Shown here one piece after another: positions 60,001-63,000 of a stretch of 64,000 bases of DNA (the stretch's first letter is position 1; the number at the start of each line of letters is the position of its first letter). The DNA comes from Escherichia coli O157:H7 (GTDB lineage: Bacteria > Pseudomonadota > Gammaproteobacteria > Enterobacterales > Enterobacteriaceae). A program made the position numbers. The DNA lies in the NCBI RefSeq assembly GCF_013167455.1, contig NZ_CP038328.1. One strand, given 5' to 3'.

Positions 60001-63000
60001 TATCAATGGCTTCCAGTAAATCGCTACAGCAGGCAATTGCCAACATAAAAATCTGGCACAAGGGTGAACAGCGCGCGCCGCATAAACCATTGTTACTGCT
60101 ATACGTATTAGCGGGATACCTGAATGGACATCCGCGCCTTTTCGATTATGGCACGGAAATCTACGAACCTCTGCACAGTTTACTGGAACGTTTTGGGCCA
60201 CAGCGTTCACAGTACCGACCTGATATGCCGTTCTGGCGATTACAAGGCGACGGAATCTGGCAATTACACAATGCCGAGCGTTGCTCAACAGCAGGGAGCA
60301 GCCGACAACCGCCAGTGAAGGAACTGAACGAATACCACGTTGCAGGCGGTTTCGATGAACAGCACTACGCCCTGGTAACCGGCAATAAAAAACTCATCAA
60401 TACTCTGGCGCAACAGATACTCGAAGCGCACTTCACCGAGAGTATTCAGGAAGAAATCGCTGACGAGCTGGGTTTTGATCTCCAGCAAACCCGTAAACAG
60501 CGCGACCCGTTATTTCGCAAAAATGTATTACGCGCTTATAACTACCAGTGCGCAATATGTGGCTTTAATATGCGCCACGATGACACCACCGTCGCGCTGG
60601 AAGCGGCGCATATAAAATGGAAACAGCACGGCGGCCCTTGTGAAATCCCCAATGGTCTGGCGCTTTGCGCAATACACCATAAAGCCTTTGATAAAGGATC
60701 GATTGGCCTGGATGAAAATATGCGGGTACTGGTCTCGGATGCGGTAAACGGCGGAGGGATCGTTGAGAGATTATTCTGGGATTTTGACGGGAAAACTATT
60801 GCGTTGCCGCAGGTGCGTAAAAATTACCCTTATGAGGGGTTTGTGGGTGAGAGATAGACATTCTGTTTACTAATAATTTATAGCCATTCTCTGCTCCTGC
60901 ATCAGAGATATGATGCAGGAATATTAAATACCAGCCACCTATAAATTATGATTTATTAATTTCTGCTTCAGTTAAATCCCTCTGAAAATAGACCCGTTTT
61001 AGTTCCATACATCTTTAAAAATCCCGACCAAATAATGAGATCAGCAAACATCTATTTGAAACGTTGGTTCTCATCCTCAAGATCCTTGATTATTTTAATA
61101 TCAGAAAATTCCATACCGCCGTATCTGGACTTGCAGTTGTAGTAAGTGGCTTCAGATAAGCCACATCTTTAACAGTTCGCCCGTATTCAAGCGATTTAAT
61201 CACGGCGATAATCTGATGCTCAGTAAAAGGGGCTTTACGAATAGCGATCTCCTTCATTGGCAGATTGATTATGCCGGAGGATCTCTAAATGTGAATGGCA
61301 CGATTATGCGGGATATTTACTGTACCAGTCCAACCCTCTGCTTACTGCAATACCAATCAAGAGGGATGGTCCACATTGACGTTTCAAAATCGATTTCTGA
61401 CCAGCGAGCAAAATGCAGCTTACTGGACCGAATAAAGATAAGCAGAGTGAGTTCTGTCGTACAGTGGGTTAGCGGTCTGCCGGTGTAGCTGTCTATTTTG
61501 TCAAGCAACTCAGGGATACGCTTTAACTCCAGCGCCGGACGATGCTGTCGATTACTGGAAGCAACCGCCCCCGACATCTCTTGCGCCGGATCGTAATCAA
61601 TTAACCCGCTTTGCACTGCATAACGCATGATGGCCGTGGTGCGCTGTTGAAGGCGGGAAGCCACTTCAAGACGCCCGGATTTCTCCACGGCTTTAATAGG
61701 AATTAACAGATCACGGGTGCCTAGTTCAGCAATGTTGCGAGTACCAATTGTCGGGAAGATATTGTCCTCCAGGCTCTTTTTTACACGATTAGCATGATCT
61801 TCCGACCATTTTTGGTTGGTTACGAGCCACTCTCTGGCAACCTTCTCGAAAGTAATAATCTCTTTCGCCTGCTCTTCTTTCACAGCACGCTTATGCTCAC
61901 GAGGATCGATACCAGCAGCTACCAGCTTTCTGGCCTCTTCCCTTTTCTTCCGCGCATCCGCCAGTGAAACATCCGGGTAAACGCCGAACGCCATCAAATG
62001 TTGTTTACCGCCAAAACGGAAACGAAATCGCCAATACTTTGAACCGCCAGGTTTTACAAGTAAGGACATGCCGTCGCCGTCAACAAGTGAATACTCTTTC
62101 TCCTCAGGTTTCGCAGAGCGAACTTTAGTATCCGTTAGGGCCATAATGGTCTTCCTTCCATTGGTATCTCGTGAGTATACAAGCAATATCGAATCGGCAA
62201 ATATACTCATTAGTATACTCACAAGCCTGTTGATGTGGGTTGGTTCAGGTTGACTTCAGTTGAGGAGAAAAGCTGGAAAAGCCTTGCGTGGCGCGGATTT
62301 CAGGCATAAAAAAAGACCTCAGTTGAGGTCTATTTACATACTTTTGGTGCCGAAGGCCGGACTCGAACCTAAGTCTCCATAACCTGCTGTAATCACGTTC
62401 CTATTAGCCTTTAAAAGAACAATCGTAGGACCTTTTTGTTCTAGGGGCTACATCTTAAGTTTGATCCGCTGGACGGAATCAAACCGAGTGTTCGTGGCGG
62501 CACAAATCATTAACGTGCCATACCTGCCTTTTGATGTTTATGGAGGTCTAGTGGGTCGGGAGGAAAGAACATTTGTCAGCTATGTGGATGTTAAGTAAAC
62601 GCCACTGCGTTCGGATTTTGAAACCAGTTAAACCCCGTCAGACCTTGTTCAGAATAACTATTTAACTCAATGTTATTTATATGAATTAAGCCATTCAGCG
62701 TCAAAGTAAAACGCCACCGTAACGCCTACGTAACGCACCCGCATTTTGCTGTTTTATTCACTCTTATAGAAACAAAGAGCTGATGAAACGTGAGGCTATC
62801 AGCATCTAATGAACACTGTTCATCCATACAGCATGAAAATTCATAAACTTACACTTGAGCTACTTTCTCAGCTTGTCCCACCGAACCGCAGATACAATAC
62901 CCCAGTTGCCGCTAGGATTAGGCCTACGCCATTTTGCTGTCTCCATGCTACGAAGATACTCAAGAGCTTCAGAAAACGTGCCAAACCGCTTCTGAGCCGT

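Follow-up and report, generated by a model that had tools for sequence, protein, structure and literature searches.

The window analyzed here, a 64-kb stretch of the Escherichia coli O157:H7 chromosome, contains close to one end a reading frame for a P4-type tyrosine integrase that looks too short, and this raises the question whether the genomic island bordered by this gene can still move by itself. A preliminary description had proposed that the frame (61317-62144, about 276 amino acids) ends before the catalytic domain, that the interval beyond it (60858-61316) contains no continuing reading frame, and that the island is probably no longer mobile by itself. Part of the background is already known: the gene is annotated as a pseudogene in RefSeq, and the island, SpLE6, is a named element of the reference genome. 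Published accounts of the coordinates and flanks of SpLE6 (PMC7430833, PMC8190617) say nothing on the state of the integrase or on excision. All positions below are those of the window, of which the segment 60700-62500 matches many E. coli O157:H7 chromosomes at 100% identity; window position x corresponds to x + 5,277,643 in strain PA20 (NZ_CP017669.1), in agreement with the feature tables.

Extent and domain content of the integrase frame

The frame lies on the minus strand, from 62144 to 61317, and comprises 275 codons plus a stop, so that the extent first proposed is confirmed. When aligned (BLASTP and tblastn) with the intact 422-aa integrase WP_073546728.1, which was found by DNA similarity on plasmid C of E. 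coli S30, where it adjoins a BREX system, residues 1-261 match without gaps at 95% identity, after which the similarity stops. Thus, 261 of the 275 codons (61362-62144) are derived from an integrase, and the final 14 codons are foreign sequence. The PGAP annotation draws the same limit, marking exactly these 783 bases as a tyrosine recombinase pseudogene ('incomplete; missing C-terminus'). The frame accordingly divides into two parts:

61362-62144, minus strand: int', the integrase-derived stub, which comprises both DNA-binding domains (arm and core) and ~54 residues from the start of the catalytic domain (BLASTP/tblastn, Pfam, PGAP pseudogene).
61317-61361, minus strand: read-through tail of the frame, 14 non-integrase codons, LDWYCSKQRVGLVQ, and the stop, including a 35-bp filler (from the limits of homology).

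Pfam analysis of int' identified the arm-type DNA-binding domain Arm-DNA-bind_3 (PF13356; residues 3-87, E=2.4e-29) and the central, SAM-like core-binding domain Phage_int_M (PF22022; residues 99-193, E=7.2e-29), and did not detect the catalytic Phage_integrase domain (PF00589) in the frame at E≤0.01. In WP_073546728.1, PF00589 spans residues 208-384. The integrase is therefore truncated as proposed, but the break at residue 261 falls inside the catalytic domain and not before it, and about 54 of the approximately 177 residues of this domain survive. These include the Box I arginine (R239, motif IFIRSS), next to which int' differs from the intact protein by two changes, E242K and R244H. The motifs HGFRT, SHME and AAYIH, located at residues 342-346, 368-371 and 377-381 of the intact relative, respectively, are all absent. 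In tyrosine recombinases, these regions carry the His-x-x-Arg motif, the second histidine and the tyrosine nucleophile. Judged by motif, int' lacks the lysine, His-x-x-Arg, the histidine and the nucleophile, that is, the tyrosine and four of the five other active-site residues. Among solved structures, those closest to int' are limited to the N-terminal and central domains of integrases, so the catalytic roles rest on motifs and on what is generally known of tyrosine recombinases, and not on a structure. With this complement of residues, int' would be unable to catalyze strand exchange.

The missing part of the catalytic domain was not found elsewhere. A tblastn search of the window with the intact integrase (E≤10) returned the match to residues 1-261 and three noise hits, with no plausible match to residues 262-422 anywhere in the 64 kb. 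Likewise, six-frame Pfam analysis of 60858-61420 (E≤10), covering the 560 bp downstream, gave no integrase signal in any frame and detected only the frameshifted HTH_Tnp_1 domain of an IS3-type transposase. As both searches were blank for the rest of the catalytic domain, it is not hidden in another frame or behind another start. These were the very comparisons by which the preliminary description could be checked, namely alignment to an intact P4-family integrase and a search for catalytic remnants in 60858-61316, and they yielded neither a remnant nor an intact domain in an overlooked frame; the latter candidate is rejected for the whole window by tblastn and for 60858-61420 by Pfam. The related idea, that the integrase is intact and only looks truncated because of an error in sequencing or assembly, a simple frameshift, or a start or frame that was missed, is scarcely credible. 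Nothing positive speaks for it, the nearest precedent being a frameshifted full-length allele known in another strain, GN02461, whereas DNA homology to intact integrases breaks off abruptly at 61357 and residues 262-422 have left no trace. Moreover, the int' segment is 100% identical in every complete O157 genome among the matches listed, with 306 records at ≥99%, and the recurrence of the same sequence in hundreds of independently assembled genomes implies that the break is not an artefact of sequencing.

The scar beyond the break and its distribution

The description of 60858-61316 as a stretch without a reading frame holds inasmuch as no integrase frame continues there; the stretch is, however, not anonymous, because it holds the remnant of an IS3-family element. 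Between the end of the integrase homology (61357) and the start of the IS homology (61321) lies the 35-bp filler (61322-61356), which was found nowhere but at the int' locus in 5,426 complete E. coli genomes. The following elements were delineated further on:

61038-61321, minus strand: left end of an IS3-family element, where O157 has AG in place of the terminal TG and what is left of orfA is frameshifted and contains stops (blastn, insertion alignment, Pfam).
60983-61037, minus strand: second IS piece of 55 bp, from ~594 bp further into the element (blastn against two IS copies).
60858-60982, no strand: AT-rich spacer of 125 bp, conserved with the scar in other lineages (homology with SMS-3-5; blank in Pfam and Rfam).

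To locate the left end of the IS, independently inserted copies of related elements were aligned; their mutual match starts at TGTAAGTATCCCGC. The segment from 61321 to 61038 shares 84-85% identity with the initial ~296 bp of related copies elsewhere in E. coli, which are annotated as 'IS3 family transposase', and only 55 bp are retained past this point, so that about 340 bp of the IS survive. The two pieces abut in the window and are separated by about 594 bp in the reference copies (blastn), indicating that an internal deletion took most of the transposase. The HTH_Tnp_1 domain of orfA is still recognizable, but it is spread across two frames and broken by stops, and six-frame Pfam analysis of 60858-61420 (E≤10) gave no signal for the DDE (rve) domain of orfB. 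A left end was located and no right end was detected. In the PGAP annotation, 61055-61242 is a transposase pseudogene. We also considered the remnants at the two ends of the island as copies of one element, and rejected this possibility because the distal end (28143-29636) and the proximal scar share no homology. The spacer gave no coding signal in six-frame Pfam analysis and contains a hairpin with a 9-bp stem at 60896-60919, read directly from the sequence; a search of 59500-64000 with Rfam (E≤1) detected no structured RNAs.

The junction of int', filler and IS is present in 374 of the 5,426 complete E. coli genomes, once per genome and only at the int' locus (306 matches at ≥99% identity, 25 at 95-99% and 43 at 90-95%). 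Such a distribution, with a single copy in each genome and a single locus throughout, indicates one event. In strain SMS-3-5, the junction, the IS remnant and the spacer all recur (~92% identity; homology from 61450 to 60846), and int' has an internal stop at codon 39 (W39); in strain CLSC36 (O1:H42), int' carries an additional frameshift near nucleotide 94. The truncation is one old event, after which the scar was inherited or exchanged while the cargo and the arriving islands changed. Most probably, a single deletion or rearrangement would have joined integrase codon 261 to the filler and the left end of the IS, removing residues 262-422, and the IS would have decayed afterwards through a frameshift, stop codons and the ~594-bp internal deletion.

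Island layout at leuX and the mobility of SpLE6

Beyond the start codon of int', the sequence bears the marks of integration at the tRNA-Leu gene leuX. ARAGORN found no tRNA gene in the window, and the stub adjoins not leuX itself but a short copy of its 3' end:

62344-62369, minus strand: 26-bp direct repeat of the 3' end of tRNA-Leu (leuX), GGTTCGAGTCCGGCCTTCGGCACCAA, which marks the SpLE5/SpLE6 junction and is not a tRNA gene (exact match).
62314-62331, minus strand: displaced Rho-independent terminator of leuX (hairpin and T-run), a terminator-like site in what was originally the sequence downstream of leuX.
28171-62318, no strand: approximate extent of SpLE6, from int' to just past nanS, computed from published sizes, with both ends approximate.

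An exact search for the repeat gave a single hit in the window and no hit in shuffled sequences, and the identity with the intact leuX of O157 strain PA20 covers exactly these 26 bases. Over the longer segment 62295-62369, the window agrees at 100% identity with the leuX 3' end and the sequence downstream of it in genomes such as those of K-12 derivatives; the terminator of leuX is the subject of a previous study (PMC2811032). In PA20, the intact leuX lies ~10.5 kb further on, beyond the window and behind SpLE5; after it come an unrelated site-specific integrase of 649 aa, IS1203 and other genes. The order therefore is leuX, the outer island (SpLE5), the 26-bp repeat, the leuX terminator, int' and the inner island (SpLE6), the latter being the second in a tandem array. 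The SpLE6 region is, we presume, O-island 172 of EDL933. In strain Sakai, SpLE5 (10,235 bp) and SpLE6 (34,148 bp) have been reported 51 bp apart, with SpLE6 positioned between int and nanS (PMC7430833, PMC8190617).

Inward from the scar, the island is occupied by the following genes:

60006-60857, plus strand: first cargo gene, convergent with int', encoding the HNH restriction endonuclease WP_000168589.1 (PGAP, Pfam HNH_2, PADLOC).
55992-59465: Zorya type II (ZorA2, ZorB2, ZorE; PADLOC).
52421-55780 and 46107-52421: Druantia type III, DruH3 and DruE3, respectively (PADLOC).
29636-45883: four-gene helicase/methyltransferase cluster that fits no single PADLOC system.

The HNH endonuclease is annotated as binding phosphorothioated DNA and matches the HNH and type IV restriction endonuclease models of PADLOC. 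The four-gene cluster encodes a UvrD/GajB-like helicase, a 2,113-aa DruE-like helicase, a 1,644-aa type IIG-like methyltransferase and a DrmD-like SNF2 helicase. Together with Zorya type II and Druantia type III, these genes identify SpLE6 as a defense island. A nanM fragment, 93.5% identical, lies at 59689-59933 and points to past recombination in the region.

A search for a distal copy of the leuX att core gave no match in the window with up to 5 mismatches in 25 bases, 4 in 20, 2 in 16 or 1 in 14, and the published distal end (at nanS, ~28.1 kb) falls within the DNA searched. The stub int' is not located immediately downstream of the target tRNA gene, and SpLE6 is not bracketed by attL/attR repeats, as an autonomous tRNA island would be. 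Furthermore, blastn detected no second copy of int' in O157 chromosomes at ~65-70% nucleotide identity or better, so that no close paralogue is at hand to act in trans. The proposal that the island is immobile by itself is thus well supported, by the lost active-site residues, the absence of a distal att core, the absence of a close paralogue and the additional stops and frameshifts that the scar has acquired in other lineages. With no working integrase, no distal att repeat and displacement from leuX by SpLE5, we consider it very likely that int', at the border of SpLE6 nearest to leuX, represents the defunct 5' part of a P4-type tyrosine integrase gene and that SpLE6 is fixed and non-autonomous, having lost the ability to excise. 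In CLSC36, the scar directly adjoins an intact leuX, from which we infer that the outer island of O157 is most simply a later arrival: SpLE5, with its own, unrelated 649-aa integrase, would have inserted into leuX after the truncation and displaced SpLE6 by 10.5 kb from the tRNA gene, and SpLE6 would now spread only via general homologous recombination.

Mobility by other routes, that is, through an integrase supplied in trans or through homologous recombination of the whole block after conjugation or transduction, anchored on leuX/int' at one side and fim/nan at the other, appears rather unlikely, although several observations are compatible with it. The scar of int' and the IS remnant, conserved at 92-96% identity, stands beside different cargo, a WYL gene and Wadjet in some lineages and the HNH endonuclease, Zorya II and Druantia III in O157, which implies an exchange of the cargo or of the whole region since the truncation; the int alleles at leuX are visibly mosaic; and the nanM fragment at 59689-59933 (93.5% identity) suggests past recombination. 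Excision in trans is at odds with the missing distal att repeat and with the lack of a close paralogue in O157, and the SpLE5 integrase (649 aa) is unrelated, with repeats that bracket SpLE5 only. Exchange by homologous recombination, for its part, is compatible with a dead integrase in a fixed SpLE6, because it does not amount to mobility by itself.

Selection on the stub and comparison with known systems

The frame of int' is still open over all 261 codons, with a plausible ribosome-binding site. Pairwise dN/dS values among the stub alleles, and between these and the intact allele, are 0.14-0.20, and are similar in the N-terminal part and in the catalytic stub (0.13-0.19), with the exception of 0.40 for the catalytic stub of O157 compared with SMS-3-5. 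Taken alone, such low values could also be read as constraint. We do not read them in this manner because the int alleles are recombinational mosaics, in which identity to other alleles shifts abruptly along the gene; for instance, the SMS-3-5 stub and the full-length, broken allele of GN02461 have a start-codon change and the W39 stop in common. The low dN/dS thus appears to be best explained by recombination with functional alleles. Changes private to O157 comprise 8 nonsynonymous and 5 synonymous substitutions, compared with 0 and 5, respectively, in the intact S30 allele, and E242K and R244H are among the O157 changes; these counts, although small, suggest relaxed constraint on int'. The stub is unchanged across about 300 O157 genomes, which says little given that O157:H7 is a young clone.

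It could be argued that the stub has been domesticated as an expressed, non-catalytic protein that binds leuX-type att DNA through its arm- and core-binding domains and serves as a regulator, a dominant-negative blocker or a stabilizer of the island. The open 275-codon frame with two complete DNA-binding domains, the low pairwise dN/dS between alleles and the retention of the scar in 374 genomes would all be expected under this scenario. It is nevertheless highly improbable in view of the stop at codon 39 in SMS-3-5 and the frameshift near nucleotide 94 in CLSC36, the preponderance of nonsynonymous changes private to O157 (8 to 5), and the 14-residue tail, which is arbitrary read-through; mosaic recombination with functional alleles also accounts for the low dN/dS. 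A scan of the interval from the leuX terminator to the start codon of int' revealed no sigma-70-like promoter; as a simple consensus scan, it constitutes weak evidence. The more specific versions, in which the stub is expressed in O157:H7 and either acts on incoming islands as a decoy or dominant-negative protein bound to leuX-type DNA or stabilizes SpLE5/SpLE6, or in which the scar is kept as a homology anchor for the swapping of defense cargo, we regard as equally far-fetched; a residual DNA-binding role of the stub, or a role of the scar as a recombination anchor, finds little support here. Most probably, the stub has no function.

The loss of the integrase explains why SpLE6 would be a stable, clonally fixed part of the O157:H7 chromosome and not an active mobile element. 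It further illustrates how the leuX hotspot may grow: once an old island has lost its integrase, it is pushed inward by newer islands that bring integrases of their own and insert into the tRNA gene. A dead scar next to varied defense cargo also fits the established view that recombination at conserved hotspots drives the turnover of defense islands. Beyond bookkeeping, the significance of these observations is small.

Among known systems, the closest is SpLE6 of strain Sakai, with which the island in the window shares the organism, the site, the int and nanS flanks, the size of ~34 kb and the distance of ~51 bp from the 10.2-kb SpLE5 at tRNA-Leu; as nothing is substantively different, the island in the window is SpLE6. 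The stub itself resembles the intact P4-type (CP4-like) leuX integrase WP_073546728.1 in the Arm-DNA-bind_3 and Phage_int_M domains and in the leuX-derived upstream sequence, and differs from it in that WP_073546728.1 extends over 422 residues and includes the whole PF00589 domain (208-384), whereas the match of int' ends at residue 261. The IS remnant is similar to IS3-family copies at the end of the colibactin island and on plasmid pW1316-1 in the region of the terminal TG and of the HTH_Tnp_1 domain of orfA but, in contrast to these copies, has a frameshifted orfA, a deletion of ~594 bp and neither a DDE domain nor a right end. Finally, the scars in SMS-3-5, CLSC36, O152:H23 and Rb-50 share with O157 the junction, the filler, the IS remnant and the spacer at 92-96% identity, always at leuX, and at least two of these non-O157 copies carry extra lesions, the stop in SMS-3-5 and the frameshift in CLSC36. 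Past the scar, these four lineages carry a WYL gene and Wadjet, whereas O157 carries the HNH endonuclease, Zorya II and Druantia III; and different secondary islands lie between the scar and leuX in SMS-3-5, O152:H23 and Rb-50, whereas CLSC36 has none.

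Comparison of the truncated integrase locus among E. coli lineages

The scar formed by the junction of the truncated P4-type integrase int' with the remnant of an IS3-family element was compared with the loci of SMS-3-5 (L007:5224-7416), CLSC36 (L011:5223-7415), O152:H23 (L012:8223-18049) and Rb-50 (L013:8223-18044). The same scar is present in all of these lineages, followed by a gene for a WYL-domain protein and large genes of unknown function and then, in O152:H23 and Rb-50, the two loci that reach far enough, by a jetD (Wadjet) gene. Differing secondary islands are located between the scar and the tRNA-Leu gene leuX in three of the four lineages (SMS-3-5, O152:H23 and Rb-50), namely a CP4-like element with cbtA/yeeU, an island with AbiE and Dcm/Vsr, and a methylase/relaxase island; in CLSC36, leuX directly adjoins the scar. 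Furthermore, the integrases of GN02461 (L005:3226-4493), which is full-length but broken, and of SMS-3-5 (L007:5224-6006), which is truncated, have in common the start-codon change M1I and a stop at codon 39. This sharing indicates that full-length and truncated alleles have recombined at leuX.

Boundaries of SpLE6 and the adjacent island

Past the 26-bp repeat of the leuX 3' end, positions 62370-64000, running on outside the window (L002:2000-12309), belong to a second island, SpLE5, and form its inner end; the window therefore contains a tandem island array. Within the window, the boundary between SpLE5 and SpLE6 is marked by this repeat only. Farther out, SpLE5 encompasses a serine recombinase gene, IS1203 and the gene for a 649-aa integrase adjoining the intact leuX. 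The features relevant to these boundaries are:

28265-28960, frameshifted transposase-domain pseudogene at the distal (nanS) end of SpLE6
59656-59933, degenerate nanC-nanM fragment, with zorE on one side and the HNH endonuclease gene on the other
60896-60919, perfect hairpin with a 9-bp stem, CCTGCATCA-TATCTC-TGATGCAGG
62860-63318, HTH gene at the inner end of SpLE5

The transposase pseudogene shows no sequence relation to the IS3 remnant adjoining int'; IS debris is thus found at both ends of SpLE6. Two further genes in the 1-3957 region, iatD (inverse autotransporter) and kptA (RNA 2'-phosphotransferase), are annotated by PGAP as frameshifted pseudogenes in the O157 background.

Over 245 bp, the nanC-nanM fragment shares 93.5% identity with the intact nanM (26344-26588), which has the same orientation. 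Diverged nanM sequence thus lies on both sides of most of SpLE6, which suggests that a nanM-like gene was the site of an old recombination or insertion event. The end of this remnant and the sequence just beyond it are crossed by the extra ~52 N-terminal codons of a mechanically called ORF (59850-60857; 335 aa versus 283 aa for the annotated endonuclease, 60006-60857), and these codons are probably not translated. The hairpin, located in the spacer that separates the IS remnant from the convergent endonuclease gene and kept together with the scar in SMS-3-5, may be a terminator; it has no T-run and was not called by the terminator scan.

Defense genes of SpLE6

Four genes are clustered at 29636-45883:

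UvrD/GajB-like helicase, 704 aa
DruE-like helicase, 2,113 aa, with a C-terminus matching the HNH region of ZorE
type IIG-like methyltransferase, 1,644 aa
DrmD-like SNF2 helicase, 952 aa

No single PADLOC system fits this cluster, which may represent an unclassified or composite defense system. Druantia type III (DruH3, DruE3) and Zorya type II (ZorA2, ZorB2, ZorE), encoded back to back at 46107-59465, both produced very strong PADLOC matches.
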